Source of the DNA: Candidatus Omnitrophota bacterium
GTDB taxonomy: Bacteria > Omnitrophota > Gorgyraeia > Gorgyraeales > Gorgyraeaceae
Reading direction: 5' to 3'
Assembly: GCA_043814965.1 (NCBI GenBank)
Contig: JBDRJN010000002.1
Span: 39,984 to 103,983, forward strand
DNA: 64,000 nt
In this document: positions 15,468-43,616 of the stretch, piece after piece
How the letters are laid out: the number at the start of each line of letters is the position of its first letter
Position numbering within the stretch: the stretch's first letter is position 1
Notes under the pieces: model-generated
The model's database searches: none
What the model was told of the DNA's origin: nothing
What the model saw: only the letters and a program-made list of their open reading frames with translations
Position numbers and translations under genes: made by a program

Positions 15468-16478
15468 ATGGTAAAGACAAAGATCATCTGTACTCTTGGC
15501 CCAGCTAGCTCAAATGAGACAATTATAAGAAAAATGACGCTTTCCGGCATGGATGTAGCGAGGCTTAATTGCTCGCATGGGACATCTAAGAGCCAGGTAT
15601 CCAATATTGAGCTTGTAAGGAAGGTAAATAAAAAGTATAAAAGGGCTGTAAAGGTCCTTTTGGACCTCGAAGGCCCGAGGATAAGGATAGGGGACCTTAA
15701 GGATAAAAAACCCATATTACTTAAAAAAAGAGAGAGGTTCTATCTCTCAAAAAATAAAATTCACTCGGGAAATGTCATACCTTTTGACTATAAAGGCCCT
15801 CTTGATAGCATTAAAAAGGCGGAGTTTATCTATATTGATGACGGTAATATCATATTAAGAGTAAGATCTATTGATAAAAATAACGTAAAAGTAGAAGTGG
15901 TGATCGGCGGCATCTTAAAAGAGCATAAGGGTGTAAATATCCCCGGCGCAAGACTCGAGTTCCCTGTAATAAGCGAAAAAGATAAGCTGGATATTGAATT
16001 TGGAAATTCTTTTTTTGTCGACTATATTGCCCAGTCTTTTGTAAGAAATAAATTAGATGTATTGGAGCTTAAAAAAAGGATAAATTCTAAATCCGGGCCT
16101 CTAGTGATATCCAAGATAGAAAACCAGGATGGAGTAAAAAATATCGATTCGATCATAGATGAATCCGACGGCATAATGATAGCAAGGGGCGATATGGGAG
16201 TATCCCTACCTATATATAAAGTCCCGATCATACAAAAAGAGATCATTAAAAAGTGTAATAAGAAAAAAAAGTTTGTCATCACTGCTACACAGATGCTTGA
16301 GAGCATGACAGAGCATCTCCGCCCGACGAGGGCAGAAGTGACTGACGTTGCAAATGCGATAATAGACGGCACTGATTTTGTGATGCTATCAGGCGAAACA
16401 GCTATCGGCAAATACCCGGTAGAGTCAGTAAAAATGATGAATGATATCATCAAATTCACAGAGAAGCCTATCAAGTAG
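15468..16478 (+). CDS. pyk: Pyruvate kinase (barrel domains only; C-terminal alpha/beta domain absent)
   Basis: [25 protein letters not shown] is a PK signature. SD AAGGAG at 15451. The ORF ends after about 336 aa, where the C-terminal domain normally begins. Confidence 0.8.
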
Positions 16479-16906: not shown

Positions 16907-17101
16907 CTTAGACAAAGTTCAGGCGAGAGCGAAAAAAACGAGAGTAAAATTTCCACGCTGAGAAAATTTTACGTCCTCGAAAACAGCTCCCACAGATAGA
17001 TAAAAATGATCTTCCATTAGGATTTGTATTTACAAACATATATTATTTGTTATAATGGCACTTTGATGAACACAATATATTAAATTGAAAGGAGTCTTGC
17101 G

Positions 17102-18546: not shown

Positions 18547-21500
18547 ATGACACACTTTAAAAAACATTTAATTAAAAACCCCATCTCCAAGAAAGTCAAA
18601 GTTTATGGCTTTAAGCTTATGACTTTACTTATAGCATCTATATTTTTCTTAAATAATATAGCTTATGGGATGGATCTGTCTGGTACAGCCCACCTAAGAG
18701 GTAACTCTCCATTTGATAAGATAAATGAAAAAGAAGATAAAGACAGGGTCAATGAACTACTTAAAGCAGTCCAGGATGCATCTGAAAAGAAAAAAGAAAA
18801 CAAGGAAGACTCGAGAGGGCCATCTATTTCCTCGACAGGCGTAGGCGATGAACACCAGGCAAATAGAAATATCCTGGAGGGCATACTCAGCACTGCTTTA
18901 AGACAGGGAAAGATCGATCCTAAAGAAAAAGAAAGAAGATTAAAAGAGTTTGATGACTTTGGGAAAGCCTTATCAGATGATATCGACCTAGAAGTAGACA
19001 ATAAAAACGTATTTTTAATAAATGGGCAAAAGCTTATTGTTGTGGATGGAGTAGATGTTTTATCAACTACAGAAGAAGGGGAACAGTATGCTTCAGCAGG
19101 CCTTAGGAGAGGGGCAGTATATATTACGAGGAATAAGTTTAATGAATGGGTGCTTGCAGGTACGCTTATGCAGAAGATACGACACGAGCAGGATGAAGTC
19201 AGTCATTTATTAAAACAAGCTGAAAATATGGGCCTATCGAGCGAGGAATTGAGCGAATATCTGAAAGACCCTCGCAATAAAGCTTCTGCCAAAAACATGA
19301 TCCAGGATGCGCATAAATTTGCTGAAGAGAATGAAAGATTAAGCGCATTGCTTAGCGAGGCCTCAGAAGATGAGGCCAGGCAGTCCTTTAAAGATAAGTT
19401 TCTTGATATGTTTAGAGGAAGATCCAAGCTATTGCAGGCACAAAGAGAGAATGCTTTAGTCAGAGAGAATGGAAGGGAAGTAAAGGTGTTTAGAGATAAT
19501 AGCCTTACACAAGAGTTTGCAGATTTTACAAAATCTCTAAAACTTCAAAAAGTCAGAGTTGTAGAAGAAAGCAATAATGGAAAAAATAAGATATATGCTG
19601 TAGATGATGTTAACGATAATAGATTTTTAGTATTTGAAGAAGAAGGCCATGTTTACATGATAGCAGTAAAAGCTGCTACTTTGTCTACGGGAGAGTTTTT
19701 TATAGAGACAAAAGATGAGCAAGTGTTACAAGGTTTTAAGAAAGCATGGGATGGGTTTGGAAGCAGAAAGACTGGAAGATTCGACGAGCATAAATTTTTA
19801 TATGCGTCAGCATTTTCAAAGAGCGGGATAGAAGTTTTGTTGAATAAGGTAGCAGGCAACCCTATTTTACGCAATTTATTTGCTCTGATAATAGAAAGAT
19901 CTGATGAGCTGCGCTTAGCGGGCGGGTTCTTTCTGAGTGATAGACAAGACGCAGGCGGATTTTACATGCCATATTTGAAATTGATCTTGTGGAGAGCTAA
20001 GCATAGCATTCCTAGCGCAGGGCTTATAGGGCATGAAGCAATGCATCATCTATTTAGTGAAGATGGAGAAATCTATAAAAAATTCCATAAGTATATAGAA
20101 GAGAACCATGAAAAGCTTCTAAAAGAGCTAAGGCATAGCCCATTATATTCTTATTTATCCGAAAAGAACCTTATCGATGAAGTGATCGCGTATTTAATGG
20201 ATGGCATAGCAGATGGCCGCGTAGAAATATTTCAATTTGGTAGATTGAAATACGGAGATCTGAAGATGTTTAAACAAATAATCCCGTCACTTGAAGAATA
20301 TTTTCCAGAAGAACTTCTCTTGCGCTTTTCCGATGAAGATATTATACGCGGGAGATTTTTTGATCTGCTTAAAGAATTATATAAGATAAGATCTGAGAAC
20401 AAGGGAATGGATTTAAAAGACGCTCTTAGTGAATGCGCCAAGAGGGAATATGGAAAAGAAGCGCCATCTCATGAGACATTATTGATAGTGGCAGATTTTT
20501 TCAAAGAAGCAGGTGATCTTAAAAGAGCAGAAAATATATACAAAAGATTATTAGATAGTTCTGAAGTTGATATGGCAACAAAAGCGATCATACGATTAGG
20601 TTTGATAGACCTGTATGTAAAAGAAGGAGATGTGCCAGAAGCAGGTAAATTGTTTGAGGTTTCAAAGGAAGAACTTACAGATGCAGGGTTTACAGAAGAT
20701 CTAATTGATAAAGCTTTTTCAATGGTCATATATCCGTCCGAGGTTTTGGCTATTTTGCTTTCAGTGACAGATGCGGAAACCATAAGAGACATATTTTCTC
20801 ATACTATAAAGGCAATAGAGAGTAAGATCGTAAAGGTAAAAGAAAAACTACAGCCCACCACAGTTCAATTTGAAATTGGAGGCCGTACAATAGAATGGGA
20901 TAGAGAATTTGTCAACCCTTACGATGTTAATATTACAGATGAAAAAACGATAAGGGACAGTGTGACATCTGGCCTAATAAAGAAAAGGAAAGATCATGAT
21001 GAATTATTGAGTTTATTAAATAAATCCGCGTTTTTATATTATTTATCAGGAGATAATGAGAAATATGAGTCTACTTTAAAAGAAGTAGAAAAGACTGAGC
21101 AAGAGATTTTAATGTTGGAAGAAAAGATCGAAAGAAGGTTAGAAGAAGACAGAGAGGCCTCCGTAAACGAAAGTTTAGAAAAGAAAAAATCTGAAAATGA
21201 ATTTTGGGATAATTTACCTAATACAGATTGGCTTAGAGATATGAAGATAGAGGATTTCCAGCTAATATATGGTGAACTTGGTAAAGTTGAGCCAGTAAAT
21301 AACCAGGTAGCCGATATAGTACCTATATTTGGCTATATAGAAGACCTATCATCTCAAGAAGATATCAAGGCCCCTGAAGCAAGTGCTTTATTGTTAGAAG
21401 TCGAACAGTTTGATTATAGCGCTGGTATTGAGCTAGTAGAGTATGACCCAGAACTTATAAAGAATATGACCTTATTACACAAAAGAAACCACTCGTCATT

Positions 21501-24500
21501 ATTTAGATGGGTATTATCAGCTATCAAAAATATTATCGGAGATAAGAGTTTAGGTGAAAAAGACAAAAAATATTATATGAAGTTTGTTTTTGATATCCTG
21601 AAGACTTATCTTAAAAATACGATCTTAAAAGATAGATTAAGCAGTGCGTTCAGGGAAAGATTAGAATCATTAGGCCTAAGCAGTGATGCAATAGGCTCTA
21701 TTATAGAACGCGGGGCTTTATCTATAGAAGATGGGCAGGTAAGAGGCAACATGGATATATTGAAGTTAATAGCAGAGATAGAAGGAGTCAAAGTAGGTGA
21801 TGTCTTAAGAAGGAGCTTGTTCCACGAAAGAGCGCACGATATCCTTGAGCTTTTATTAAAAGAAGATAAAAAAGATGTGCTTAAGGATGTAAAAGATGGC
21901 CTTGGCAGTGACTATTATCTGGTAAAAGCTATTATGGAAGAAGAGTTCGGCGAGTTTGAAAGTGAACAGGAATTTTTAGAGGAATTAGTCGTCAAGTACT
22001 ATACGTACAGATTTTCCGGCAGTGATACTTCTATTTTTGAAAAAAGCGAGATGCTAAAAGTAGCTAGCGTTATAGATTCTTTAATGCCGGATGGCCTAAA
22101 GGAGCTATTTACTATAAAAGGAGAAAACACACAACATGCGCAGTCCGAGAAGTTGAAAGAGCTTTCCAGGGAATCCAAAAGATTAGGCGGAAAACTCGAG
22201 ATAGAATTTGAAGAAGGTGAAGCTATAAAAGAACTTTCTGATGAGATAAAAAATGTTATAGCTAGTATAAATATGACTCAAAGCGCACAAGACCCTGAAG
22301 AAGCTGTATCAATTAATGAAACTGTGTTAGGGCTAGGAGCTAAGATGGTGACTTTGCGAGATATAGATTTAGAAGAGATAAATAGGCTTAGGAGATCAAA
22401 TATAGACAAGTTTGTTATTGAAAGAAAACCAGGCCTAGAGCCAATAATAAATAGCGATACAAGAGATCAGCAGAATTGGCCATATACATATTCTGACCTA
22501 AATATCGTTGATTCCAATTTTGGCATAGATATATTTGATATGATAGAGAAAAAATCAGATTCCGAACCAGATAAGACTTTTACTGTAGTGGATTGGGGGT
22601 GTGGCGCAGGCATAGCCTTGAATGATATAGCAAAGAAGTTAAAAGAAAAAGGCATAAACAATGTAAGATTAATTGGTTTTGCTGATCAATATCATTCTGC
22701 GTGGGAGAAGGCTGACGAGAGTATAACCTTTATTTTAGACGAAGCCAAAGCGCTGCCCAAATATCGTGACGTATTAAAAAGCCCATATTTAATTTATAGT
22801 TTTATGGGCCTAAGGCACTTAATAGGAAAGAATATTGATGATCACTCTGATTATAGCGACTATATAATGGAGTTAACCGATAATTTATCCAAAGACGGGA
22901 AAATAATCACTGAATATGATAGATCTAAATATGAAAGGGTATATGAACATATAAAATCAGATTTAGCCTCCAAAGGGATCGAGTTCGAACAAGTAATAAA
23001 TCCAGTAAGAGGCTCTGCTATGATCATATCCAAAGAAGATCCAAATAAACAGCCTGCCTCAAGTGGAAAAATAGAAGAGCCGATGATCAGGTTTATTCCA
23101 GGTATAGTGGATATGGTAGATCTGGGAATTTTATTCAAGAAATATAAAGGAAACCTTTTTTATAGAGTTTCTGACGAAGGAGATACTAAAAAGGCAGTCG
23201 TATTTTCTCACGATAAGAACAAGAATGAAATAGTACGCGGTGAATGGCAGCTTGTAAATAGATTTGACCTTAATATATGGGAGCCAGTGTATATTCCCAG
23301 CTCTACAGCTTCATACGGAGAAAAGAAAGCATATGAATTTATAACTAAATTCGATGAGCTTATATATAAGATAGAACCTTTGAATTTTTTATTCCCAGAT
23401 ATAAATCTTAGGGATATCAGAAACCAGTCGATTTATCTAAGAGATATCGCTAGGAACCACAAAACTGAGCAGCAATTATTAAAGGTACTATCCAAGGCAA
23501 AAGATGCGATAGAGGACAAGGTGATAAAGCTGGCATTGAAGGACAGCAGTAAGTTTGACATCTCAAGACAGAATAGGATCAAAGAACGCCTAAAATCCAC
23601 AAAGTCAGATTTTAAAGGATTATACAATATCTTGTCTGACATAGAAAAGAATCTCAATAAAAAAGGCACAAAGACTAATATAGTAGGAAAATTGACTTTG
23701 TTCGCAGCAGGTGTTTTGAGTTCATTAGGCACTATGGAGGCAAGTGATATCTCAGGTCAAGATTTATCCCAGGTAAAAGACCCAGCACCCATAGTGCAGT
23801 ACGTAGATAATGCGCCAAATGCTATAGATCTATTAGAACAAGATCCTAAAGATTTAGCGCTTCAGGATGAGAGGTTTATTATAGACGTAGGAGGTATTGA
23901 GTTTGACCTTACTGGTAAAGCAATGCGGGAGGTGTTGGATGACGGGACTACCGTAGCTACAGTCCTGGAGTATATAAATATTAAAGATGGGAATTTTGAT
24001 ATAGGGACCCATAAAGACGTATTTATCTTCCATCCAAATGACAAGATAATAATATCTCCTGCGAAACCCGGCATACCCAGCATTATAACTTTGAATACTT
24101 CATGGGAGGTCACGCCTCCTTCTTTCGTTGATCTCGGCACTCTATACATTAAGGGTTCTGAAGAATATAAGACTATACTTACTTTGGTAACATATGGCAT
24201 GGGTAGTCTCGATGAAAACGATATCCCTGCATTTAATAATGGACGTATGACAGAGTTTGACATGGCGCCATATGAGTTATCAGGAAGCTTAATATTATAT
24301 CCCGCGTATGGCTCTTATGGTACTGGCCGCAATTCATCTACGGGGGAACTCGTAGGATTTATATTTATAGATAATAAAACCAAAGAAATATTGATGATAG
24401 ATAGAGAGAACTATAGTTTTAATGAACTTAAAATGTTATATGAAGCGACATATAAAGGAGTGACGAATATTGATGAATTTGAGACTGCTACAAACAGTCT

Positions 24501-27500
24501 TATAAAAAGAGGAGGTAGTATTTATAATGAATTACGCAGCGCCCGTTCCTATATATTGGACGCGGTTACTAATGATAAGGAATTTAAATTAGAACTTTTA
24601 GATGGATCAGGCAATAAGACAGGAGAATTCGTAATTTTTAATAAAGGAACAAGGATAGATATGAATACGATGATGCCTAAAGACGGCTCAAAGGGCCTTC
24701 TGAATGGAGATAGTTCTAAACCCGTAAGATATATGAAAGGTGATATCATAACCGAAGAAGAATATCAAAAAGACATGTTTTATGATGATGAGAACCAGGG
24801 TATGCTAGATCTGCAAAATACCTCGTTTTCCTTGAAACAGCCTGATCTGGCAGGGCTAAAGACTACCCATGATACAAAATCACGAGTTCTGTTAGAAAGC
24901 ATATTTGACAGTAGGAAAGTAGACCTTGGTAGATATGCGGTAGATGAGCCTGTAACCGAAGGGACAGGCGTGAATCTATACTGGGTCAAAGACACTCAAT
25001 CTGAACTAGAATTCTTTGTTTTGTGTGTAGACAGTAGGGGAAGCATTATTTTAATAGCTGAAGGTATGGAAGGCTATGATGAACTACTTTCTCCTTACAT
25101 TTCAAATGATATCGAACGCCTTAAAAACAAGATGGTTGAGATAATAAGCCGCGGTATAGATAATCCATATGGCATAGGAGACGTCATCCTCTTTGATAAA
25201 AATAATATTTCAGTAAGGCTCAATAATGGACAGGTGATAGACTATAAGTTTAGGTCAGAAGAAATAGACAATCCTGATGGAACAATAAGCTTGGTATATA
25301 TAGGTGATAAGCCTGTAAATGTAGGCAATCAGACCTTCGAGAAAGGCGACAAGATAGTCTTGGAATGGAGCGATGATAAGTACGGAAAGAGTGACACAGG
25401 ATTTATCATTAAAGAGATCGTAAAAGGAGAATTATATAAAGATATCATTGATACCCAGGATAAAAAAAGCGAGGAAAGCAAGATAGGTGATAAAGAAGTC
25501 CATTCTCTCATAGCTGTACTAAGAGCAGGTGATTATAATAAGATAATCTGGGCCAAAAAAATGTTGCTGCAAATGGGAGATATAGCAGTAGATCAGCTTA
25601 TTGAAGCGTTGAGCGATAGTTCAATAAAATCCAACGTTCTTAGTTCAATTATAGATATATTGGGAAATGTCGGTGATCCAAAGGCAATACAGCCATTATT
25701 GATTTCTATTGAGAAACAGTCTAATTATTTTGGTGCCTATTTGGCTGCAAAAGCAGTATTCAAGATCGATGAAGAAAAACTTTCTACAATATTCCAGGCC
25801 TTGGCAAATAGGGCTAAGGTTAAAGGCAATAGCTGGAGAAGCTATCTACTATTTGCAAATAGTCTAAATATGGGATTATCCGACCATCAAAAAGAACGTT
25901 ATAGTGTTTTCTATAATGGATTACAAGCTGGAATACAGGAAGGAGTTCTATGTATTCATGAAGCAGGTATGGACAATAATCAGATCGAGGATGTAGGAAT
26001 TCGTAGGGTATTTTCGAACATAGATGAAGTAAAGGAATGGATTAATAGAGATTATGAATTGGGTTTTCAATATTATCCTCCTTTTGACGAAATGTCAAAT
26101 ATGTTATCGCCAGATTTTATATTACAGATCAGTAATGGAAAAATTTCCATGGTTTATCATACAGATGTAAAACTTAGACAGATAGTTGGTGAAAAAGAAG
26201 TAGAAGAAGAGCTACGAAATATTGGCTTTATTGGTGGTTCTGGAATTATAGCAGTAGAGAAGGGAGGCGATATCGGGAATAATAGCCTATATCTAAGAGT
26301 TTTTAATAGTGTACATTCACATAGCCATCCTAAAAAATATGAATCGCATATCGTAGTTCCATCCGAGACAGATCTGAATTGTTATAAAGGTGAAATTGAT
26401 AAACGTAACGAGTTAGAGTTAGAAGATCAAAAAAAGGATCCTTCAAAGGCTGATACTTTGGCTGAATCAACTTATGTCTATACTAAAATATTGGGATTTG
26501 GGTACAAAGATAATGAAGCTGAGCGTATTACAAAAATGATCTCAGATTTTTATATGGAAAACAATATAAGTGTTTTAGAAAACTTACCAGAGTTGGAACA
26601 GATCAAAGGGCTCAAGGATATATTATCAGGTAATCTTGAGATAGAATTCGGACTTCCAACGAATTTAGAAGAAGTATTTACTGGAAGAAAGGCAAATTGT
26701 TATGGCAGCAGCCAACTGTTTAAGATATTAGGGGAAATGATAGGTTTGGATATAACTCCGTTAGAGATAATAGTGTCCAATGATAAACAACTGCATCTTT
26801 CTAGCCATGGAGCCTTATTAGTTAATTTAAGTAATGGCACTTCAGTAATTGTGGATATGGCTTTGCCTAGTATGGGTGAAAATGGCATTAGTGATGCTTT
26901 TTCTATAAATATGCAATACAAGAAAGAAGGGAACTATCTTATATTGAATGATAATGTCAACCCTTTAAATCTATACTATAAATTTAGAATAGGAGATATC
27001 GGGTTGATTAATTCATGGGTTATCTTATCGAATGTGCATTATCCCGATTCTTATACTATTCCGGATGTAGATAGTAATAATGTTAAGATAATAGAGAAAG
27101 CTATAGAGAAAGATCCTCTGTACATACGCTCATATTTTGGTCTAGCAAACGCGTATTGCACAAATATATTATACGCCAATGTTTATTCTGAAGATGATAT
27201 TATCAAATGGGTAAAAGATAATCCTGAAAATATAGAAAAGGCGTTGAAATTGATGGATAAGGCCTTAGGATTGGACCCTAAAAATGAACAGGGCCTATTG
27301 TACAAAAATAGACTAGAAGAATTGTTGGAAAAAGCAGAAAGCAGAGGAAGTCTTGAAGTTATTCCAAATTCCGACTCCGGCTCATTGATGCCTGAGTCAA
27401 GCATGCAGCCTCACAGATTAGAACTTTTAGATGGGACTGGCAATAAGACAGGAGAATTCGTTATTTTTAATAAGGGGACAAGGGTAAAACCTAGCACGAT

Positions 27501-29982
27501 GACACCCGAAGACGGCTCCAGGGGTTTCTTAAATGGCAATAGCTCAAAACCTGTTAGATATATGAATGGTAAGATAATAACCGAAGAGGAATATCAAAAA
27601 GATATGTTCTATGATGGCGGTAAAGATCAGGGCATGATAGATTGGAATAATATACCTTCTAATATATCTCCCAAGGTTCCTTTTACTATCTCTAGTATTA
27701 ATAGTTATGATTTTAAGCTAAATGGAGCATTAGATAGAAATAACGTGGCAAGTATCTTACCGGAAGGCCTTAGCGTAATCCCGTATTATACCGGAGGAGG
27801 TGTCTTACCTATTGGATTGACAGTAGGCTATGAGAATTTATTCGGGAATAATATGATAGGAGGAGGGTTTAATACTATAGGGCTGAACTTAAGAGAGTTC
27901 GAAGCTAAATACGGATATATGTTAGATAAAGATGAATATTTAGCTGGTTCAATCAAGCTGTTTGGGAAAGGTTACCATCCTCTTTTGGATAACACATTGA
28001 TAGCAAAGTTTCAGTATGCAGGCGGAAGACATCAATTAACAGCTGGATATGCAAACTTTCTTGCGCAGTTCGCTAATAAAAATATGAAAAATAGCTCTAC
28101 AAACCTGATATTTTCTAACTATATATATGATTATGACAAAAATATCAATGAAGGATTTGATTATTATTTAAATATAAATTTGAATGGGGGCTGGAACTCT
28201 GCAAATTCTGAAACATGGGAGTCTTTTTTGGGGTTGTTTGACGAAGGATTTTTAGCTTATAGTAGATTTTTAGGCAAGGCAAAATACGCATTATCCATAG
28301 ATGACCATTTTAATGCCTATGGCGAGAGCGTATTGGAACTTGGGGCCAGAACAGAGCTTAATAATATTTTGATGTTAAAATGGCGCTTGTCCCCGTCTAC
28401 AAAATTGTCAGGAGGGCTTCAAACCAGGCATAATCTAGACCTATGGTCTAGTGTCGCGCTTAGAGAAATTTATGGTTCTACAGAAGTTTTATTACCGTTT
28501 ATAATAGATTTAGAGCTTTACGGAAACTATCTGGAAGTAAAGGGCAATTATTACCCTAAGACTAATTTTTTAGGATTTGAACTTACACTTAGGACAGATT
28601 ATATATGGATAAAGGCATTTAAAGAATCTTATTTGTCAGATGTCCCAAGGTATGGCATAGGGCTTTCGGTTCCTTTGGGCAGGGATAAAGAAAGATATAT
28701 GCCAGATTTTTACCAGTTTGATAATAGAGATGTTTTTATAACTGATTCTATCGTGCAGATGCCTGAAAACATCTTAGCTTCTTTCGAAGAATATCCAGCA
28801 GAAGTTGTCCCGCAAGACCCTGCTTTTTATGAGGAGCTTAAAAAGAGATTAGTGGAGTCAGGCCTACTACGTCCGGAAATTCCCATAGAAGAGATAAAGT
28901 ACCATTATATACTGGAGCTAAAGGCATCAAGAGACATATTTGGCCTGACATCTGCAGAAGTAGTAAATAATTTTAGGAAATATAATTGGGGACTTAATGA
29001 ACTTTTATATCTTGGGAAGTCATTAGAGTGGGATTATCATGAAAGTATTTTTACTACTCCTCAAGAGACCTGGAGCAAAGAACCAAGTGTGTGCAGGGAC
29101 CATTCAGCTTTTCTTGCATTAATCATGAGAGATGGCATGGGATTGAGCACTGCAAGGGCGTATAATCTTATTGGTATGTATGGTTTTGCGCATGTAGTAG
29201 CAGTAGCTGTGGGAGAAAATGGGCATGGCAGAGAAGGATATGTTATGGTAGTTGATAAGGATAAGATCTATCTGCCAGGTGAGAATGGTTTTCCAGCAAT
29301 AAAATATGAGAATGAGGGCTCTTTTGTAAGGGCGTTGAGCTATATATATCCCAATGCTATTACTACACAGGGAGGAGATACATTTTTTGGAAAGATATTA
29401 AGAGATAATATAGAGAAGCCGATATTTGATATTAAAAGTAATAAAAATAATCCTTCACTGGAGGAAGAAGAATTAGAACAAGATGGGGTAAAAGAAGAAC
29501 AGAGAGATGATAAAGAAATAGAAAAACAGGAAGATAAAGAACAAGATAGTGATGGTTCTTTGATGATGCCTATACCATTGGTCCCTGTAGGAAAGAGAAA
29601 TAACAACACTTTTACTGATATACCCAAAAGATCTACGGCTAATAGTATGAGCCAGATCGAAGCTGTATTCGCAGATACTATCATAGGTAATGAAGAAAAA
29701 TTCGAAGACTGGCTGCGTGATAAGCGTAATGCAGGGCACCAGGTAGTGATAATATCAGAACCCGAAGATTTTAAGAATATAGAAAAATATAAAGAAATAG
29801 CCTATATAAAGGTTCTCGGGGAAGACATAAAGGATGAAAGTTATATAAATAAACTAAGGGAGTTAAGAGTATTATGTGAATTTAAGCCATTTAGTGGTTT
29901 TAATTTTGATGATCTACTGCAGGTAGAGTCGAATCTCGACCAATATAAAGAAGTCCTGGTATCAGTAGCAGGGGATATGTAA
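18547..29982 (+). CDS. Giant secreted/surface multidomain protein (3811 aa): HExxH x2, SAM-methyltransferase motif, HEAT/TPR, beta-rich aromatic region, transglutaminase-like core
   Basis: Uninterrupted 11.4 kb ORF with an N-terminal signal-like segment (LMTLLIASIFFLNNIAYG). HEAMHH at about 20032 and HERAHD at about 21823. VVDWGCGAGIAL at about 22590. CRDHSAFLALIMR..GFAHVV at about 29090. Own promoter and terminator. Confidence 0.85.
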   Translation: MTHFKKHLIKNPISKKVKVYGFKLMTLLIASIFFLNNIAYGMDLSGTAHLRGNSPFDKINEKEDKDRVNELLKAVQDASEKKKENKEDSRGPSISSTGVGDEHQANRNILEGILSTALRQGKIDPKEKERRLKEFDDFGKALSDDIDLEVDNKNVFLINGQKLIVVDGVDVLSTTEEGEQYASAGLRRGAVYITRNKFNEWVLAGTLMQKIRHEQDEVSHLLKQAENMGLSSEELSEYLKDPRNKASAKNMIQDAHKFAEENERLSALLSEASEDEARQSFKDKFLDMFRGRSKLLQAQRENALVRENGREVKVFRDNSLTQEFADFTKSLKLQKVRVVEESNNGKNKIYAVDDVNDNRFLVFEEEGHVYMIAVKAATLSTGEFFIETKDEQVLQGFKKAWDGFGSRKTGRFDEHKFLYASAFSKSGIEVLLNKVAGNPILRNLFALIIERSDELRLAGGFFLSDRQDAGGFYMPYLKLILWRAKHSIPSAGLIGHEAMHHLFSEDGEIYKKFHKYIEENHEKLLKELRHSPLYSYLSEKNLIDEVIAYLMDGIADGRVEIFQFGRLKYGDLKMFKQIIPSLEEYFPEELLLRFSDEDIIRGRFFDLLKELYKIRSENKGMDLKDALSECAKREYGKEAPSHETLLIVADFFKEAGDLKRAENIYKRLLDSSEVDMATKAIIRLGLIDLYVKEGDVPEAGKLFEVSKEELTDAGFTEDLIDKAFSMVIYPSEVLAILLSVTDAETIRDIFSHTIKAIESKIVKVKEKLQPTTVQFEIGGRTIEWDREFVNPYDVNITDEKTIRDSVTSGLIKKRKDHDELLSLLNKSAFLYYLSGDNEKYESTLKEVEKTEQEILMLEEKIERRLEEDREASVNESLEKKKSENEFWDNLPNTDWLRDMKIEDFQLIYGELGKVEPVNNQVADIVPIFGYIEDLSSQEDIKAPEASALLLEVEQFDYSAGIELVEYDPELIKNMTLLHKRNHSSLFRWVLSAIKNIIGDKSLGEKDKKYYMKFVFDILKTYLKNTILKDRLSSAFRERLESLGLSSDAIGSIIERGALSIEDGQVRGNMDILKLIAEIEGVKVGDVLRRSLFHERAHDILELLLKEDKKDVLKDVKDGLGSDYYLVKAIMEEEFGEFESEQEFLEELVVKYYTYRFSGSDTSIFEKSEMLKVASVIDSLMPDGLKELFTIKGENTQHAQSEKLKELSRESKRLGGKLEIEFEEGEAIKELSDEIKNVIASINMTQSAQDPEEAVSINETVLGLGAKMVTLRDIDLEEINRLRRSNIDKFVIERKPGLEPIINSDTRDQQNWPYTYSDLNIVDSNFGIDIFDMIEKKSDSEPDKTFTVVDWGCGAGIALNDIAKKLKEKGINNVRLIGFADQYHSAWEKADESITFILDEAKALPKYRDVLKSPYLIYSFMGLRHLIGKNIDDHSDYSDYIMELTDNLSKDGKIITEYDRSKYERVYEHIKSDLASKGIEFEQVINPVRGSAMIISKEDPNKQPASSGKIEEPMIRFIPGIVDMVDLGILFKKYKGNLFYRVSDEGDTKKAVVFSHDKNKNEIVRGEWQLVNRFDLNIWEPVYIPSSTASYGEKKAYEFITKFDELIYKIEPLNFLFPDINLRDIRNQSIYLRDIARNHKTEQQLLKVLSKAKDAIEDKVIKLALKDSSKFDISRQNRIKERLKSTKSDFKGLYNILSDIEKNLNKKGTKTNIVGKLTLFAAGVLSSLGTMEASDISGQDLSQVKDPAPIVQYVDNAPNAIDLLEQDPKDLALQDERFIIDVGGIEFDLTGKAMREVLDDGTTVATVLEYINIKDGNFDIGTHKDVFIFHPNDKIIISPAKPGIPSIITLNTSWEVTPPSFVDLGTLYIKGSEEYKTILTLVTYGMGSLDENDIPAFNNGRMTEFDMAPYELSGSLILYPAYGSYGTGRNSSTGELVGFIFIDNKTKEILMIDRENYSFNELKMLYEATYKGVTNIDEFETATNSLIKRGGSIYNELRSARSYILDAVTNDKEFKLELLDGSGNKTGEFVIFNKGTRIDMNTMMPKDGSKGLLNGDSSKPVRYMKGDIITEEEYQKDMFYDDENQGMLDLQNTSFSLKQPDLAGLKTTHDTKSRVLLESIFDSRKVDLGRYAVDEPVTEGTGVNLYWVKDTQSELEFFVLCVDSRGSIILIAEGMEGYDELLSPYISNDIERLKNKMVEIISRGIDNPYGIGDVILFDKNNISVRLNNGQVIDYKFRSEEIDNPDGTISLVYIGDKPVNVGNQTFEKGDKIVLEWSDDKYGKSDTGFIIKEIVKGELYKDIIDTQDKKSEESKIGDKEVHSLIAVLRAGDYNKIIWAKKMLLQMGDIAVDQLIEALSDSSIKSNVLSSIIDILGNVGDPKAIQPLLISIEKQSNYFGAYLAAKAVFKIDEEKLSTIFQALANRAKVKGNSWRSYLLFANSLNMGLSDHQKERYSVFYNGLQAGIQEGVLCIHEAGMDNNQIEDVGIRRVFSNIDEVKEWINRDYELGFQYYPPFDEMSNMLSPDFILQISNGKISMVYHTDVKLRQIVGEKEVEEELRNIGFIGGSGIIAVEKGGDIGNNSLYLRVFNSVHSHSHPKKYESHIVVPSETDLNCYKGEIDKRNELELEDQKKDPSKADTLAESTYVYTKILGFGYKDNEAERITKMISDFYMENNISVLENLPELEQIKGLKDILSGNLEIEFGLPTNLEEVFTGRKANCYGSSQLFKILGEMIGLDITPLEIIVSNDKQLHLSSHGALLVNLSNGTSVIVDMALPSMGENGISDAFSINMQYKKEGNYLILNDNVNPLNLYYKFRIGDIGLINSWVILSNVHYPDSYTIPDVDSNNVKIIEKAIEKDPLYIRSYFGLANAYCTNILYANVYSEDDIIKWVKDNPENIEKALKLMDKALGLDPKNEQGLLYKNRLEELLEKAESRGSLEVIPNSDSGSLMPESSMQPHRLELLDGTGNKTGEFVIFNKGTRVKPSTMTPEDGSRGFLNGNSSKPVRYMNGKIITEEEYQKDMFYDGGKDQGMIDWNNIPSNISPKVPFTISSINSYDFKLNGALDRNNVASILPEGLSVIPYYTGGGVLPIGLTVGYENLFGNNMIGGGFNTIGLNLREFEAKYGYMLDKDEYLAGSIKLFGKGYHPLLDNTLIAKFQYAGGRHQLTAGYANFLAQFANKNMKNSSTNLIFSNYIYDYDKNINEGFDYYLNINLNGGWNSANSETWESFLGLFDEGFLAYSRFLGKAKYALSIDDHFNAYGESVLELGARTELNNILMLKWRLSPSTKLSGGLQTRHNLDLWSSVALREIYGSTEVLLPFIIDLELYGNYLEVKGNYYPKTNFLGFELTLRTDYIWIKAFKESYLSDVPRYGIGLSVPLGRDKERYMPDFYQFDNRDVFITDSIVQMPENILASFEEYPAEVVPQDPAFYEELKKRLVESGLLRPEIPIEEIKYHYILELKASRDIFGLTSAEVVNNFRKYNWGLNELLYLGKSLEWDYHESIFTTPQETWSKEPSVCRDHSAFLALIMRDGMGLSTARAYNLIGMYGFAHVVAVAVGENGHGREGYVMVVDKDKIYLPGENGFPAIKYENEGSFVRALSYIYPNAITTQGGDTFFGKILRDNIEKPIFDIKSNKNNPSLEEEELEQDGVKEEQRDDKEIEKQEDKEQDSDGSLMMPIPLVPVGKRNNNTFTDIPKRSTANSMSQIEAVFADTIIGNEEKFEDWLRDKRNAGHQVVIISEPEDFKNIEKYKEIAYIKVLGEDIKDESYINKLRELRVLCEFKPFSGFNFDDLLQVESNLDQYKEVLVSVAGDM

Positions 29983-30007: not shown

Positions 30008-30040
30008 GGTCACAGGTAATGTATTGTGACCCTTTTTTAT
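30008..30040 (+). terminator. Rho-independent terminator of the giant gene
   Basis: ggtcaca (30008-30014) pairs with tgtgacc (30025-30031), followed by TTTTTT (30033-30038). It lies 26 nt after stop 29982. Confidence 0.6.
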
Positions 30041-30057
30041 TGTGTTATAATATCTCC

Positions 30058-31572
30058 ATGAAGATCATACCTATATTTATCCCGCATGCAGGGTGTCCAT
30101 ATAAGTGTATATATTGTGACCAGAATAAGATCTCAGGCGCAGTGAGGCTTCCTTCAAAAAAAGAGGTCCAATCTATAATAGATGAGAGGCTAAAAACCAT
30201 CCCAAAAGAAGAAGTAAAAGAAATAGCGTTCTTCGGCGGCACGTTCACATCTTTACCTAATAAATTACAAGAGGAATATCTGAGGATAGCCCACTCATAT
30301 GTGAAAAAAGGCGTAGTTGATTCTATTCGCATGTCTACCCACCCTGAATCAGTAACTAAGGAATCCATGAAAAGATTTAAAAGATACGGAGGAAGATTAG
30401 TAGAGCTTGGCATACAATCCCTGGATAAAAAGGTCTTAAAAAGTATTAAAAGAGAAGTAGATCTTAAGAATGTTAAAGATGCAGTTGAGATCATAAAGAG
30501 TTCAGGGCTTAAATTAGGGGTGCAGGTGATGCTGGGCCTTCCAGGAGATACACTTAAAAGGTCTATTGATACAGCCAAGAGACTTGTAAGATTCAAGCCA
30601 GAGACAGCCCGCATATATCCAGCGCTTGTCATAGAAGGGACAGAGTTAGCTGGTTTATATAAGAAAAGAAAATATAAACCAATGGCCTTAAAAAGAGCTA
30701 TAGAAGAAGCAAGTGTTATAACAGATATCTTTGAAAAGAATAAAGTAAAGGTTATCCGTATTGGCCTTCATCCTTCAAGGGACTTGGAATCAAAAGAGAC
30801 TTTGTTAGCCGGGCCGTACCATGTGAATTTTGGGAGTTTAGTGCGTTCTAGGATCATGCAAAATAAAACTAGAGATGTCAAAAAGGACATTGCTTTAATA
30901 GACCCACGGATGCCGAGGAAAGCCAAAGAAAAACTTAAGTGCCTAAATTTTAATTTAATCGAAGTACCATTGCATAAAAGGCTTCAAAAACCTATTAAAG
31001 GTCATACTGATATGATGATCTTTAAGTACAATAAAACTGTGGTATATGAACCGAGACTTGAAAAGATAGCAAGGATCTTGAGGCTAAATGGATATAAATG
31101 CATAAAGGGAGATGAGATCTTATCAGGTAGATACCCCAAAGATATAATCTATAATGCATGCAGTGTTGGTAGAGCGATAATCCATTATAAAGGTGATATT
31201 GATAAGCATATAAAATCTTTGAAAGCAGGGCATATACTGGTTAATCAGGGATATGCAAAATGCTCTATAGTGCCTGTAGATAATAAGCGCATTATTACAT
31301 CTGATACAGGTATAGCTAATGCTTGGACTAAAAAACGCGGGATGTCTCTACTCGTAAAGCCTGGGCATGTGAAGCTGCCTGGATATAAGGCTGGATTTAT
31401 AGGAGGCGCAACAGGAGTGACAGATAAGACAGTGTTTTTTGTAGGTAGACTAGATACTCACCCAGATTCTAGAAAGATAAGGAGTTTTATCAAAAAATCA
31501 GGCAAAAGCATAGTAGAGCTCTACGAGGGCCCGTTATATGATGTAGGGAGTGTAGTATTTTTTGATTGCTGA
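30058..31572 (+). CDS. Radical SAM protein with a C-terminal 250-aa domain of unknown function
   Basis: IPHAGCPYKCIYCDQ (CxxxCxxC), with the glycine-rich FFGGTFTSLP. Start moved to ATG 30058 because 30019 lies inside the upstream terminator. Confidence 0.75.
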   Translation: MKIIPIFIPHAGCPYKCIYCDQNKISGAVRLPSKKEVQSIIDERLKTIPKEEVKEIAFFGGTFTSLPNKLQEEYLRIAHSYVKKGVVDSIRMSTHPESVTKESMKRFKRYGGRLVELGIQSLDKKVLKSIKREVDLKNVKDAVEIIKSSGLKLGVQVMLGLPGDTLKRSIDTAKRLVRFKPETARIYPALVIEGTELAGLYKKRKYKPMALKRAIEEASVITDIFEKNKVKVIRIGLHPSRDLESKETLLAGPYHVNFGSLVRSRIMQNKTRDVKKDIALIDPRMPRKAKEKLKCLNFNLIEVPLHKRLQKPIKGHTDMMIFKYNKTVVYEPRLEKIARILRLNGYKCIKGDEILSGRYPKDIIYNACSVGRAIIHYKGDIDKHIKSLKAGHILVNQGYAKCSIVPVDNKRIITSDTGIANAWTKKRGMSLLVKPGHVKLPGYKAGFIGGATGVTDKTVFFVGRLDTHPDSRKIRSFIKKSGKSIVELYEGPLYDVGSVVFFDC

Positions 31573-31715: not shown

Positions 31716-32681
31716 ATGAAAATAAGCGATTTTTTAAAGAAAAATTTCAAGCATTTCAATGCAAGAGCGCTTATAGATGCTTCAGATAGCTATATAGAGC
31801 ACCTCGACAAGGGTGGCAAGATGCTTCTAGCAATGGCAGGAGCTATGAGTACAGCTGAGCTTGGGATAAGCCTTGCTGAGATGATAAGGCAGGACAAGAT
31901 CCATGCTGTATGTACTACTGGAGCGAACCTTGAAGAGGACATATTTAACCTTGTCGCGCACTCTCACTATAAAGTCATACCTAATTATAGGGACCTTTCT
32001 CCAGAGGACGAGCTCAAACTTCGCAAAAAAGGCCTCAACAGAGTGACAGATACCTGCATACCCGAAGAAGAGGCAATACGAAGGATCGAGGGTAAGATCC
32101 TCCCTTTGTGGGAAGAAGCCAGTAAAAATAATAAGAGATATTTTCCCTATGAATATTTTTATGAACTTATACGTAAAGATGAATTAAAGGAGTTTTATGA
32201 GATAGATCCTTTGGACAGTTGGGTAGTGGCTGCATCTAAAAAGAATATCCCTATATTTACTCCTGGGTGGGAAGACTCTACTTTAGGCAATGTTATAGTA
32301 GGACATCTTAAAAAAGGCGTTTTTAAGGGCCTTGGTTTTATAAAAAGCGGCTTGGAACAGATGTCGTATCTAGTGGACTGGTATCTTGAGAACACAAAGT
32401 GCTCTTCTATAGGGTTCTTTCAGATAGGAGGAGGGATCGCAGGTGACTTTCCTATATGCGTAGTGCCTCTTATAAGGCAGGACCTCGGAAAAGACTGTCC
32501 TCTCTGGGGATATTTTTGCCAGATAAGTGACTCTACCACATCCTATGGCTCCTATAGCGGGGCAGTGCCTAATGAAAAGATCACTTGGGAGAAGCTCGGA
32601 TTAGACACACCAAAGTTTTTAATAGAATCAGATGCCAGCATTGTAGCGCCTCTTATGTTCCAATATATCCTGGAAAAGTAA
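31716..32681 (+). CDS. Deoxyhypusine synthase-like protein
   Basis: MSTAELGISLAEMIRQDKIHAVCTTGANLEED and overall DHS-like layout. 321 aa. Confidence 0.65.
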   Translation: MKISDFLKKNFKHFNARALIDASDSYIEHLDKGGKMLLAMAGAMSTAELGISLAEMIRQDKIHAVCTTGANLEEDIFNLVAHSHYKVIPNYRDLSPEDELKLRKKGLNRVTDTCIPEEEAIRRIEGKILPLWEEASKNNKRYFPYEYFYELIRKDELKEFYEIDPLDSWVVAASKKNIPIFTPGWEDSTLGNVIVGHLKKGVFKGLGFIKSGLEQMSYLVDWYLENTKCSSIGFFQIGGGIAGDFPICVVPLIRQDLGKDCPLWGYFCQISDSTTSYGSYSGAVPNEKITWEKLGLDTPKFLIESDASIVAPLMFQYILEK

Positions 32682-32682
32682 T

Positions 32683-33549: not shown

Positions 33550-33552
33550 TAT

Positions 33553-34098
33553 ATGCTGGTACCGACCAAGGTATTCTTGACAAAAGGCGTTGGCTCAAAT
33601 AAAGAAGAGCTCAGGTCATTTGAGCTTGCATTGAGGGATGCTGGTATAGAAAAATGCAATCTTGTAGAAGGTTCTGGCATACTTCCTCCAGGATGCAAGA
33701 TAATATCTAAAAATGAAGGCATAAAGGAACTTAAACCAGGCATGATAACTTTTGCGGTTGTCTCCCGCTGTGCAAGCAATGAACCGAGGAGGCTTATAGC
33801 TGCTTCAATTGGCCTGGCAAAGCCAGCTGATGATGCTGCTTATGGATACCTTTCACAGAACTATGCATATGGCCAGACAGATGAAGTAGCAGGGGACTAT
33901 GCAGAGGATATGGCGGCTTGCATGCTTGCCTCTAGTCTCGGCATAGAATTTGACGAGGAAAAATCCTGGGACGAAAAAAAGGAATTTTTTAAAATAAATG
34001 AACAGATCATAAGGACCAGCAATATCACTCAATCTACTATTATAGGCAATAATGGCTGGTATTCGACTGTTATTGCAGCAGCAGTATTTATCTTCTAA
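33553..34098 (+). CDS. pdaD: Pyruvoyl-dependent arginine decarboxylase
   Basis: MLVPTKVFLTKGVG..LVEGSGILPPG is PdaD-like. 181 aa. Confidence 0.7.
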   Translation: MLVPTKVFLTKGVGSNKEELRSFELALRDAGIEKCNLVEGSGILPPGCKIISKNEGIKELKPGMITFAVVSRCASNEPRRLIAASIGLAKPADDAAYGYLSQNYAYGQTDEVAGDYAEDMAACMLASSLGIEFDEEKSWDEKKEFFKINEQIIRTSNITQSTIIGNNGWYSTVIAAAVFIF

Positions 34099-41405: not shown

Positions 41406-43616
41406 ATGTTTACAAGAGGAAGATGGGACAAGACGATCGATGTAAGGGATTTTATCAATCGTAATTACACTCCTTATGACGGAGACAGTTCTTTTTTGAA
41501 AGGCCCTACAGAGCGCACAAAAAGACTCTGGGCAAAATGCCTGGAACTTTTTGAAGAAGAAAGAAAACGCGGCGGAGTCCTGGATATAGATACATCTACT
41601 GTCTCGACCATCGCAAGCCATAAGGCCGGATATATTGATAAAAAACTGGAGATAATAAAGGGCCTGCAGACAGATAAGCCTTTAAAAAGGGCAATAAAAC
41701 CGCTGGGCGGTATAAAGATAGTCGAGAAAGCCTGCAAGGACTATGGGTATAGCCTTGATAAAAAAGTAAAGGATATCTACCTAAAATATAGAAAAACACA
41801 TAATGACGCTGTATTTGATGCTTATACAGAGGATATATTGAGGGCCCGCCGCAATGGCCTTATAACAGGGCTCCCTGACAATTATTCAAGGGGAAGGATA
41901 ATAGGGGACTATAGGAGAGTCGCTCTTTATGGTATAGATAGGTTGATAGATTCCAAGAAAAAATATAAAAGGATACTTGAGGACTATTCTACTAATGAAG
42001 CTCTCCAGCTCAGGGAAGAGATAGCGGATCAGATCACAGCGTTAAATGAAATGAAAGAACTTGGCAGTATCTATGGATTTGATATCTCAAAACCAGCTAA
42101 AGACGCTAAAGAGGCAATACAGTGGACATATTTCGGGTATCTAGCAGCTATAAAAGAGCAGGATGGAGCTGCGATGAGCCTGGGGAGTGTAAGTAATTTC
42201 TTCGATGTATTTGTAGAAAGGGATATCCAGAATCACAGATTGACAGAGGATGAAGCGCAGGAACTGATAGATGATTTTGTGATAAAGCTGAGGCTTGTAA
42301 GGCAGTTAAGGACAAAGGCCTACACTGATATCTTTGCAGGAGATCCTGTATGGGTGACTGAAGCGATAGGAGGCATGACAATAGATGGAAGGCACAAGGT
42401 CACAAAATCATCCTTTAGGTTTTTACAGACCCTCTTCAATCTTGGGCCATCGCCTGAGCCGAATCTAACTATACTTTGGTCAAATAGGCTGCCAGAAAAC
42501 TTTAAGAAATTCTGCAGTTTTACCTCTATAAAGACAAGCTCCATACAGTATGAAAATGACGACCTTATGAGGATGATGGGAGGCGATGACTATAGTATTT
42601 CCTGCTGTGTATCGCTTTTAAAAAATGGGAGCGAGATGCAGTATTTTGGCGCAAGATGCAACCTGGCAAAAGTACTTTTATACGCGCTTAATAGAGGCAG
42701 AGATGAAGTGACTGGCGAAAAAGTAGTCCCTAATATCGCGCCTATCTTATCTGACCCGTTTGATTTTAACGAAGTAAAAGAAAGGTTCCACCAGGTATTG
42801 CGCTGGACCATTAATACTTATGTAGAGGCTCTCAATATAATACACTCTATGCATGATAAATATTATTACGAGAGGGCTCAGATGGCGCTTCTGGACAGTG
42901 AACTTACCAGATATATGGCATTTGGTGTAGCTGGGTTAAGCGTGGCAGCGGATTCCTTGAGCGCGATAAGATACGCAAAAGTAAAACCCGTCAGAAATAA
43001 AAAAGGAGTTGCAATCGACTTTAATGTAAAGGGCGATTTTCCTAAATTCGGCAATGATGATGATAGAGTAGACGGGAGAGCAGTGGATCTCGTGACAAGT
43101 TTTCTGGGAGAATTAAAAAAACACCCTCTTCACAGAAACTCTATACCAGCTATCTCTATACTTACTATAACTTCCAATGTCATGTATGGCAAAAAGACTG
43201 GCGCGACCCCTGACGGAAGAAAAAAGGGCGACCCATTTGCGCCAGGAGCCAGCCCTATGCATGGAAGAGATGAAAACGGCATTATAGCCAGCCTTAATTC
43301 AGTCGCAGGCCTTCCTTATAGCGAGTGCAGGGATGGTATCTCGAACACTTTTACTGTAATACCATCCATATTAGGCAAGCTGGAAGAAGAAAGAATAGAT
43401 AATCTGTCGCATTTACTGGAAGGTTATTTTACAAAAGGCGCTCATCACCTCAATGTAAATGTGATAGACAAAGATACATTAAAAGACGCAATAAAAAATC
43501 CACATAAATACCCTCAGCTTACAATAAGGGTATCAGGATACGCGGTTCACTTCAGTAAATTGTCGTTAGAGCAGCAAAAAGAAGTTCTATCAAGGACATT
43601 CCATGAAAACATGTAA
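41406..43616 (+). CDS. pflB: Pyruvate formate-lyase (formate C-acetyltransferase)
   Basis: 736 aa. C-terminal glycyl-radical motif [11 protein letters not shown]. Overall PFL-like. Confidence 0.9.

Follow-up and report, generated by a model that had tools for sequence, protein, structure and literature searches.

The large open reading frame (ORF) at 18547..29982 on the forward strand of the analysed DNA (a window of 64,000 nucleotides from a Candidatus Omnitrophota bacterium) encodes an uninterrupted protein of 3,811 aa that carries the same small module twice. We favor, with a probability of roughly 0.6, an old in-frame copying of a single domain of ~65–77 aa, with selection acting on both copies and a putative non-catalytic role in binding or docking.

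Translation, self-BLASTP and a repeat search place copy A at aa 2014–2090 (24586..24816, forward strand; KLELLDGSGNKTGEFVIFNKGTRIDMNTMMPKDGSKGLLNGDSSKPVRYMKGDIITEEEYQKDMFYDDENQGMLDLQ) and copy B, which has one extra codon after FYD, at aa 2957–3034 (27415..27648, forward strand). The module begins at K/R-LELLDG and ends at QGM-[LI]-D-x-x. In the self-BLASTP comparison, aa 2014–2091 and 2957–3035 align at 74.7% identity over 79 aa (E 8.4e-35), the sole significant internal match of the protein. At the DNA level, the repeat search of the gene returned a single 200-nt direct repeat (24588–24787 and 27417–27616) with 81% identity and a spacing of 2,829 nt, which equals 943 codons in frame. This identity is far beyond chance because 200-nt pairs drawn at random, in frame, from this gene have a mean identity of 28.7% (sd 3.4%) and peak at 42.5%. 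The Shannon entropy of the copies (3.84 and 3.88 bits) equals the whole-protein average (3.82 bits), and thus the module is not low-complexity sequence. Nor do the copies form a tandem array: they are not head-to-tail, unique sequence lies between them, and TRF finds trivial short repeats only. Much of what a sequence-only reading of this DNA had described is borne out by these measurements. The two peptides that it quoted translate exactly as given in the frame of the large ORF, their separation of ~2.8 kb is correct, the similarity indeed extends beyond low-complexity sequence, and the self-comparison of the gene that it suggested yields one significant repeat pair and no second. The repeat that it called a 70-aa module is real and slightly wider, at 77–78 aa, and its figure of ~85% nucleotide identity was too high, since 80.5% is measured over its own 195-nt core.

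Relatives of the module are scarce. In a full HMMER scan of 1.84 billion representative proteins, the true matches are the protein itself and P0002 only (E 9.8e-8). P0002 (MBC8473664.1) is a partial hypothetical protein of a Candidatus Omnitrophica metagenome-assembled genome (MAG; GCA_014384055.1), and its gene fragment wholly occupies a contig of 3.7 kb. It contains two diverged copies of the module, 108 aa apart, and BLASTP detects it with copy A (E 5e-12) and with copy B (E 4e-6). Copies A and B are 75% identical to each other and 38–43% identical to the copies in P0002; a profile built from all four scores 100–130 bits on each of them, by construction. Both P0002 copies follow the pattern K-x-G-x-[FY]-[VL]-[IL]-F ... 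P-K-x-[GN]-S-K-G-x-L ... G-x-I-[IL] and are separated by an acidic, Pro/Glu-rich linker, but they are near-tandem and do not have the 6-residue DGSGN(K) insert of the module described here. The most conserved polar element in the four known copies (a conservation pattern sampled from two proteins only) is the loop P-[KE]-x-[GN]-S-[KR]-G-x-L, found by four-copy comparison at 24676..24702 in copy A (PKDGSKGLL) and at 27505..27531 in copy B (PEDGSRGFL), both on the forward strand. The remainder of P0002 has no Pfam or PDB match and is unrelated to the 3,811-aa protein. By sequence, the module qualifies as a family common to these two proteins.

Searches for described relatives agree with the earlier view that the module matches no recognised family. 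Pfam-A, NCBIfam and PHROGs give no match over aa 2014–2090 or 2957–3034, even at E-values up to 1–10, and a PDB profile search with the module gives nothing significant (best E 0.15). No relative of the whole protein was found in genome and metagenome contig collections, and no relative of the module alignment in genome, metagenome and viral contig collections. Word-indexed homology searches with the module, the four-copy alignment or module B plus its downstream sequence returned nothing, but these are weak negatives, as the index missed even the identical protein in the collection. Two further candidates from the HMMER scan, P0003 (Ig-like repeats) and P0004 (PD40-like repeats), were dismissed as spurious because their scores add up from partial matches of 2–11 bits and vanish with the four-copy profile. 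In P0003 (cumulative E 1.7e-4; single matches of 2–6 bits over ~25 residues each), the VE[IL]FDKDGNKIGEG strand-turn of a 91-aa adhesin repeat resembles the N-terminal xELxDxxGNKxGE hairpin of the module, whereas the C-terminal half of the module is helix-like and in this differs from an Ig repeat. The search for the module elsewhere, which had been recommended, thus adds one carrier, P0002, and judged from sequence the module represents an undescribed family with no carrier known so far outside Omnitrophota.

From an internal ATG at 18619, the product of the large ORF is identical to MFH1478247.1 in NCBI, a hypothetical protein of a Candidatus Omnitrophota MAG. An aldolase gene is a neighbour of the ORF. 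The N-terminus of the protein is signal-peptide- or membrane-anchor-like, and a Kyte–Doolittle screen finds this hydrophobic segment, one doubtful internal segment (mean 1.49) and no others. Weak matches to HEAT_2 (aa 2321–2393; 21–24 bits against a cutoff of 27.7) and to TPR (aa 2850–2871; every TPR family below its cutoff) fall between the two modules, in a stretch of 866 aa (24817..27414, forward strand) that is unique and unlike the sequence 3′ of copy B. The protein also has one JAMM-like motif, at aa 2592, and two protease-like HExxH motifs. In PDB sequence searches, the JAMM-like, methyltransferase-like and C-terminal regions have no significant match, so the catalytic motifs stand at motif level only; profile searches detect no SecA, dockerin, C39 or S8 domain. 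Immediately 5′ of copy B, a Ser/Pro/Glu-rich linker-like stretch read from the sequence (27328..27414, forward strand; EKAESRGSLEVIPNSDSGSLMPESSMQPH) appears to mark a domain boundary, and linker-like S/P/E-rich sequence also lies between the two copies of P0002. Directly 3′ of copy B, 385 aa (27652..28806, forward strand) are rich in Gly, Tyr and Asn and poor in Glu and Lys, a composition that resembles that of outer-membrane beta-barrels and makes this region a candidate for one.

Long Omnitrophota proteins are mostly membrane-anchored or exported and multi-domain; repeated domains are the rule in them, and the nucleotide similarity between repeats has decayed (Nielsen and Lui, 2026, bioRxiv 10.64898/2026.06.07.730766; West-Roberts et al., 2023, bioRxiv 10.1101/2023.11.21.568195). 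The 3,811-aa protein has in common with them its phylum, its probable exported or membrane-associated multi-domain type, putative HEAT/TPR scaffolding and large unannotated stretches. Its module likewise occurs at least twice per polypeptide, with the DNA similarity mostly lost and the protein domain kept, but it is not a Pfam domain and is present as two dispersed copies, not as an array. The term “giant gene,” used in the sequence-only reading, does not apply, as 3,811 aa is below all published thresholds for giant, long or huge proteins (at least 30,000, at least 10,000 and more than 5,000 aa). The protein also differs from the archaeovorin-type giants (West-Roberts et al., 2023) in length, which in those is 30,000 aa or more, and in having neither their many transmembrane regions nor a match to their divergent SecA DEAD domain; to the extracellular HEAT and TPR repeats that also characterise them, its weak HEAT_2 and TPR matches, which stay below the cutoffs, may or may not correspond.

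Shared ancestry of the two copies is still visible in the DNA because 40 of the 58 codons for conserved residues are identical, against 28.0 expected from codon usage; the other 18 differ synonymously. These codons support the proposed true intragenic duplication of coding sequence. Comparison of the copies also makes it very unlikely that the duplication is recent, as had been claimed, and that the copies are alike only since little time has elapsed, with no bearing on function. Identities of 75% in protein and 80–81% in DNA, rising to 91% over the first 66 nt, would favor a recent event. Against it, dS between the copies is 1.15 by NG86 and 0.89 by LWL85 (bootstrap 2.5% bound 0.58); these values are imprecise, as they rest on a short alignment of 76 codons, and yet lie above the range that defines young paralogues (much below 1, for example <0.1–0.2). 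A dS near 1 is about the level of divergence between Escherichia and Salmonella. With a dN of 0.14, dN/dS is ~0.1 (upper bound 0.25), and the high protein identity is the result of purifying selection on both copies and not of youth. Over the first 198 nt the copies differ at 38 sites (25 transitions and 13 transversions), distributed 9/4/25 over codon positions 1, 2 and 3, a pattern that is ordinary coding divergence in the frame of the ORF. Gene conversion could make the copies seem younger than their true age, and they might be far older and partly homogenised. The uneven identity (91% over the first 66 nt, ~65% in the middle and ~86% at the end) and the identical runs of 17 and 23 nt point in that direction. 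The longest run is not unusual, however, given the number of mismatches and their codon positions (P = 0.16), and the low-identity middle coincides with amino-acid changes in a variable loop, so that uneven protein constraint accounts for the dip; homogenisation is therefore an improbable explanation.

The edges of the repeat bear on how much was copied. The similarity between A and B starts and ends sharply, within a codon or two (within one codon of LELLDG at the start). Outside it, the partly linker-like flanks show no relationship in Smith–Waterman comparisons against shuffles (upstream z = 0.2, downstream z = −0.6). Among the four known copies, eight such comparisons gave no convincing flank similarity; the best was between the sequences 3′ of B and 3′ of copy 2 in P0002 (z 2.5, P 0.026 uncorrected), followed by that between the sequences 5′ of A and 5′ of copy 1 in P0002 (z 2.0, P 0.049 uncorrected). 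Sharp edges and unrelated flanks fit a discrete domain copied alone, to judge from the alignments, and not the remnant of a larger duplication. A doubling of the whole 2,829-nt (943-codon) block, with everything except the module diverged beyond recognition, would explain why the spacing is exactly in frame, and a Cys...His...Asp arrangement reminiscent of transglutaminase-type cysteine peptidases can be seen by eye later in each unit. These Cys-His-Asp regions align non-significantly (z 0.8), however, and at a dS near 1 constrained neighbouring domains would be expected to be still recognisable, which together with the unrelated flanks around all four copies makes a relic of this size unlikely. 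A different account takes the [GN]-[ST]-[KR]-G loop as a cleavage or recognition site that splits a precursor at block boundaries. Several self-cleaving proteins make use of Gly-Ser and Asn-Thr junctions. Copies A and B both adjoin linker-like sequence at a boundary, the HExxH and JAMM-like motifs are protease-like, and Omnitrophota giant proteins have been proposed to be cut into several products. Self-cleavage is nonetheless hard to credit, as the module matches no known self-cleaving domain, has no conserved His, Cys or Asp to assist, and occurs in P0002 in copies just 108 aa apart, which would be odd for polyprotein boundaries. Finally, two ~80% identical DNA copies of 200–230 nt within a few kb could in principle be a nucleic-acid element (a retroelement template/variable repeat pair or a recombination site) or an assembly artefact; this is barely conceivable, as the codon-position pattern is one of protein constraint, the gene matches nothing in Rfam, no identical run exceeds 23 nt and the frame is continuous on both sides. 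A diversity-generating retroelement pair was rejected because there is no adenine bias: mismatches fall at A in 15/38 (copy A) and 9/38 (copy B) cases, at an A content of 40%.

The structure prediction that had been suggested for the module gave no usable fold (pLDDT 31–41). AlphaFold2, given a two-row alignment of the module, reached a pLDDT of 40.5; module B with 400 downstream residues reached 30.9. Because both models are of low confidence, any fold comparison, including that with an SH3b-like five-stranded barrel, is meaningless, and a Foldseek search of the PDB with the module model (best E 2.3, probability ≤0.08) was discarded as such. From low-confidence secondary structure and sequence boundaries, which are also the basis for regarding the module as an independent domain, the likely layout is two beta-hairpins and then a short C-terminal helix. 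Copies A and B contain no Cys, His or Trp, and the columns that do not vary among the four copies hold hydrophobic residues, Gly, Lys, Thr, Ser and Pro. By analogy, and given the absence of catalytic-type residues, the module is most likely an orphan non-catalytic binding or adaptor domain of an exported multi-domain protein. The analogy, which is functional only, is with SH3b, LysM, carbohydrate-binding modules (CBMs) and dockerin/cohesin: the module is like these in its size (60–80 aa), its predicted beta-rich content, its linkers, its presence in more than one copy, its lack of catalytic residues and its exported host protein with hydrolase-like motifs, but searches with its sequence and with its low-confidence model match it to none of them.

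One class of Omnitrophota giant proteins commonly carries dockerin and EF-hand repeats. The best PDB profile match of the module (E 0.15) pairs DGSKGLLNGDSSK...TEEEYQK with an EF-hand of the Plasmodium MTIP light chain, over its loop and exiting helix. This lead was set aside as neither significant nor canonical. In the canonical 12-residue loop, D-x-[DNS]-x-[DNS]-G-x-[ILV]-x-x-x-[DE], ligands occupy positions 1, 3, 5 and 12, and Gly position 6. In the module, the Gly is preceded by an additional Lys and position 12 is not acidic; as EF-hand or dockerin loops, DGSKGLLNGDSS would have Gly at position 5 and Leu at position 6, and DGSGNKTGEFVI Lys at position 6 and Ile at position 12.

In the favored reading of an old copied domain, copies A and B would be paralogues of one small, independently folding domain of ~65–77 aa. 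Once the lineage had diverged from that of P0002, the one other known carrier, a segment of ~231 nt coding for the module alone would have given rise to a second, in-frame copy within the gene, 943 codons from the first. Since then, synonymous sites would have drifted towards one substitution per site, while purifying selection kept both copies nearly unchanged in protein, which suggests that both are in use and do a similar job. The conserved basic loop T-x-x-P-K-x-G-S-K-G-x-L, held on a small beta scaffold, may contact a ligand or partner, and the two copies would lie at the N-terminal edges of two different functional blocks in an exported HEAT/TPR-containing multi-domain protein. A bolder and unlikely extension is that the Omnitrophota-specific module marks block boundaries in large exported polyproteins as a docking or self-processing unit; if true, the pieces of a long precursor would be cut and/or reassembled via the module, comparable to cohesin–dockerin pairs in cellulosomes.

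The suggestion that this duplication represents a route by which giant genes grow is overstated, as the duplicate amounts to 77 of 3,811 residues (2%) and no further significant repeat is present. Domain duplication is ordinary in large multi-domain proteins, and the general picture is unchanged by one that covers 2% of a gene. The pair is a clean example of high internal protein identity that reflects selection and no recent event, and its age agrees with the published view of repeats in long Omnitrophota proteins. With the module, the large unannotated part of these proteins gains a further undescribed domain family. Short, discrete and strongly constrained, the module lends itself in practice to expression, structure determination and screens for binding, and may provide a first functional handle on an otherwise opaque protein.

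The open reading frame at 18547..29982 on the + strand is uninterrupted and encodes a protein of 3,811 aa in which one segment occurs twice. Both peptides picked out by the sequence-only reading are translated exactly as quoted in this frame, and self-BLASTP of the protein in overlapping chunks aligns aa 2014-2091 with aa 2957-3035 at 74.7% identity over 79 aa (E 8.4e-35), with no second significant internal match (next best pairs at E of at least 0.13). At the DNA level, a single long direct repeat (24588-24787 and 27417-27616) is 81% identical; over the 195-nt core of the earlier reading identity is 80.5% rather than the roughly 85% claimed there. For pairs of 200-nt segments drawn at random, in frame, from this gene, identity averages 28.7% and peaks at 42.5%. 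The start-to-start spacing is 2,829 nt, or 943 codons, and the copies are therefore in frame. Tandem Repeats Finder returns only trivial short repeats from the gene, and the residue entropy of the module equals the protein average, which bears out the claim that the similarity is not confined to low-complexity sequence. The in-gene repeat is thus confirmed with slightly wider limits: nt 24586-24816 (+) for copy A (aa 2014-2090) and, with one extra codon, nt 27415-27648 (+) for copy B (aa 2957-3034).

The age of the duplication was estimated by aligning the two copies codon by codon. The 76 comparable codons give a dN of 0.14 and a dS of 1.15 (Nei-Gojobori) or 0.89 (LWL85), and a codon bootstrap puts the 2.5% limit of dS at 0.58 and the upper limit of dN/dS at 0.25; on these values, the module cannot be called recently duplicated, as it had been. 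A dS near 1 is about that between Escherichia and Salmonella. Over the first 198 nt, differences fall 9/4/25 by codon position, and transitions account for 25 of the 38. Where the amino acid is conserved, 40 of 58 codons are identical against 28.0 expected under full randomisation by the gene's codon usage, so the intragenic duplication is real: a DNA-level trace of common descent persists, over half of it lost. The protein identity is high because strong purifying selection acts on both copies. A search for gene-conversion tracts found a longest identical run of 23 nt, which is unremarkable for this many mismatches at these codon positions (P = 0.16). The mismatches have no adenine bias, and the pair is therefore not the template and variable repeat of a diversity-generating retroelement. 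Together, these data show that the gene holds an internal duplication of a discrete coding segment, that this duplication is not recent, and that purifying selection acts on each copy in this reading frame.

Duplication had also been put forward as a route by which giant genes grow. The duplicate makes up 2% of the gene length and no other significant internal repeat was found; thus, internal duplication is not visibly the source of the gene's size. A much older internal duplication is possible but marginal, between aa 606-702 and aa 1182-1281 (20362-20652 and 22090-22389; 24% identity, Smith-Waterman z 5.0 against shuffles, BLASTP E 0.13). Each of these segments starts about 90-110 residues past an HExxH motif (aa 496, 20032-20046; aa 1093, 21823-21837). 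The host protein is otherwise almost wholly unannotated, with weak matches, all under curated cutoffs, to TPR (aa 631-710 and 2850-2871), HEAT_2 (aa 2321-2393) and Methyltransf_31 (E 0.028). The same pattern search that located the HExxH motifs found a SAM-methyltransferase motif I (VVDWGCGAG, 22585-22611) and a JAMM-like H-x-H...S-x-x-D (HSHPKKYESHIVVPSETD, 26320-26373; AfJAMM E 1.4), and none of the three motif types has a significant profile or PDB match. Its N-terminal end resembles a signal peptide or membrane anchor. NCBI MFH1478247.1, from a 164.5-kb contig, has the same sequence as the protein read from the internal ATG at 18619; the start codon is ambiguous between this ATG and 18547, where the longest frame begins, and the NCBI version lacks the first 24 residues and opens directly on the hydrophobic segment. 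Further in, a moderately hydrophobic segment (aa 1712-1730, 23680-23736, IVGKLTLFAAGVLSSLGTM; Kyte-Doolittle mean 1.49) could cross the membrane as a helix or act as a second export signal in mid-protein. Directly after copy B, a region of 385 residues (aa 3036-3420, 27652-28806) is rich in Gly, Tyr and Asn and poor in Glu and Lys, a composition resembling that of an outer-membrane beta-barrel; this region had no homologue in a word-indexed search and an AlphaFold2 pLDDT of 31.

Ordinary chromosomal genes surround the large gene, among them those for pyruvate kinase, a class II aldolase, radical SAM enzymes, Maf and pyruvate formate-lyase. The pyruvate kinase frame (15468..16478, 336 aa) matches the barrel domain only, its usual C-terminal domain seemingly missing, and the 620 nt between it and the aldolase (16479-17101) hold no frame above 84 aa and no Rfam match. 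Five radical-SAM frames lie within the 64 kb (6723-7991, 11714-12562 and 12559-13869 on the - strand; 30019-31572 and 36623-37939 on the + strand), three with B12-binding domains and one, a DUF6873 fusion, immediately downstream of the large frame. A compact polyamine or hypusine-like cluster (31716-34098, +) encodes members of the deoxyhypusine synthase and arginase/agmatinase families and a pyruvoyl-dependent arginine decarboxylase, followed by Maf. A ZMP/ZTP riboswitch (41214-41301, +; Rfam RF01750, 43.6 bits, over the gathering score) directly precedes the pyruvate formate-lyase frame (41406..43616) in the classic 'pfl motif' arrangement.

The search for the module elsewhere, which the sequence-only reading had proposed, yielded one true relative. 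A full HMMER scan of 1.84 billion representative proteins with a two-copy profile matched four, one being the host protein itself. The relative, P0002 (MBC8473664.1; E 9.8e-8), is a partial hypothetical protein of 1,240 aa from another Omnitrophota MAG, unrelated to the host protein outside the module; it carries two copies, 108 aa apart, with an acidic Pro/Glu-rich linker between them. The other two matches (P0003 and P0004) were rejected as summed, very weak partial matches to unrelated repeats that are lost with a four-copy profile. No further carrier turned up in scans of representative genomes, JGI metagenomes or viral contigs. The identity between copies A and B is 75%, against 38-43% with those of P0002, and the duplication thus postdates the split from the P0002 lineage. 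Word-indexed protein searches gave no match and missed even the identical host protein and P0002, both cluster representatives in the collection searched, so their "no homologue" outcomes for the host protein are unreliable.

The module lies outside recognised families, as had been proposed: nothing in Pfam, NCBIfam or PHROGs matches it at permissive thresholds, and the best hit of the four-copy profile among all PDB sequences is an EF-hand loop at E 0.15, whose canonical spacing the module does not fit. Structure prediction, suggested earlier as a check, produced models of low confidence (AlphaFold2 pLDDT 40.5 for the module alone, 30.9 for module B with 400 downstream residues), and Foldseek found nothing credible with the former. 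In the two models combined, strands fall at LELLD, GEFVIF, VRY and KII and EEEYQKDMF forms a helix, a tentative hint of a layout of two hairpins and a helix. Cys, His and Trp are absent from copies A and B. Across the four known copies, the invariant columns are core hydrophobics, turn glycines, two lysines, Thr, Ser and Pro, and the most distinctive element is a loop, T-x-x-P-[KE]-x-[GN]-S-[KR]-G-x-L.

Repeats of this kind are already known in the phylum; the module itself is undescribed. A Pfam domain is repeated at least twice in 65% of Pfam-positive Omnitrophota proteins of at least 10,000 aa, with nucleotide similarity among repeats largely dissolved and protein architecture kept (Nielsen and Lui, 2026, bioRxiv 10.64898/2026.06.07.730766). 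The present pair fits that pattern of decayed DNA and kept protein. Conversely, the host protein is much smaller, under every published "giant", "long" or "huge" threshold, and its two copies are dispersed rather than arrayed and belong to no described family. In sum, an unrecognised module was indeed duplicated inside the gene, but neither recently nor with a major effect on gene size.

Similarity sets in within one codon of LELLDG and fades past QGM-[LI]-D, the flanks resemble each other no more than shuffled controls do (60 residues upstream, z 0.2; 200 downstream, z -0.6), and a Ser/Pro/Glu-rich, linker-like stretch lies directly N-terminal to copy B. Most simply, a stretch of about 231 nt coding for just the module was copied into another site of the gene, in frame. 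Duplication of the whole 2.8-kb block, followed by erosion everywhere outside the module, is improbable; Cys...His...Asp regions spotted by eye downstream of each copy could have been its remnants, but the alignment between them is not significant (z 0.8). The module is probably an independently folding, non-catalytic domain with a putative binding role, judging from its sharp edges and the linkers beside it, its lack of catalytic-type residues, its multiple copies in both carriers and the published picture of long Omnitrophota proteins. Less favoured, and quite unlikely, is a role as a site of processing or self-cleavage. The full account of duplication, selection, independent fold and binding role is given a probability of roughly 0.6; duplication with selection is held with high confidence, and the binding role, taken alone, is tentative. 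In the published picture, long Omnitrophota proteins combine enzymes with HEAT/TPR scaffolds, are exported or anchored in the membrane, and are thought to act on the surfaces of hosts or prey. Each copy here would sit at the N-terminal edge of a different block in an exported multi-domain protein, where it would most likely bind a ligand or partner through its conserved basic loop.
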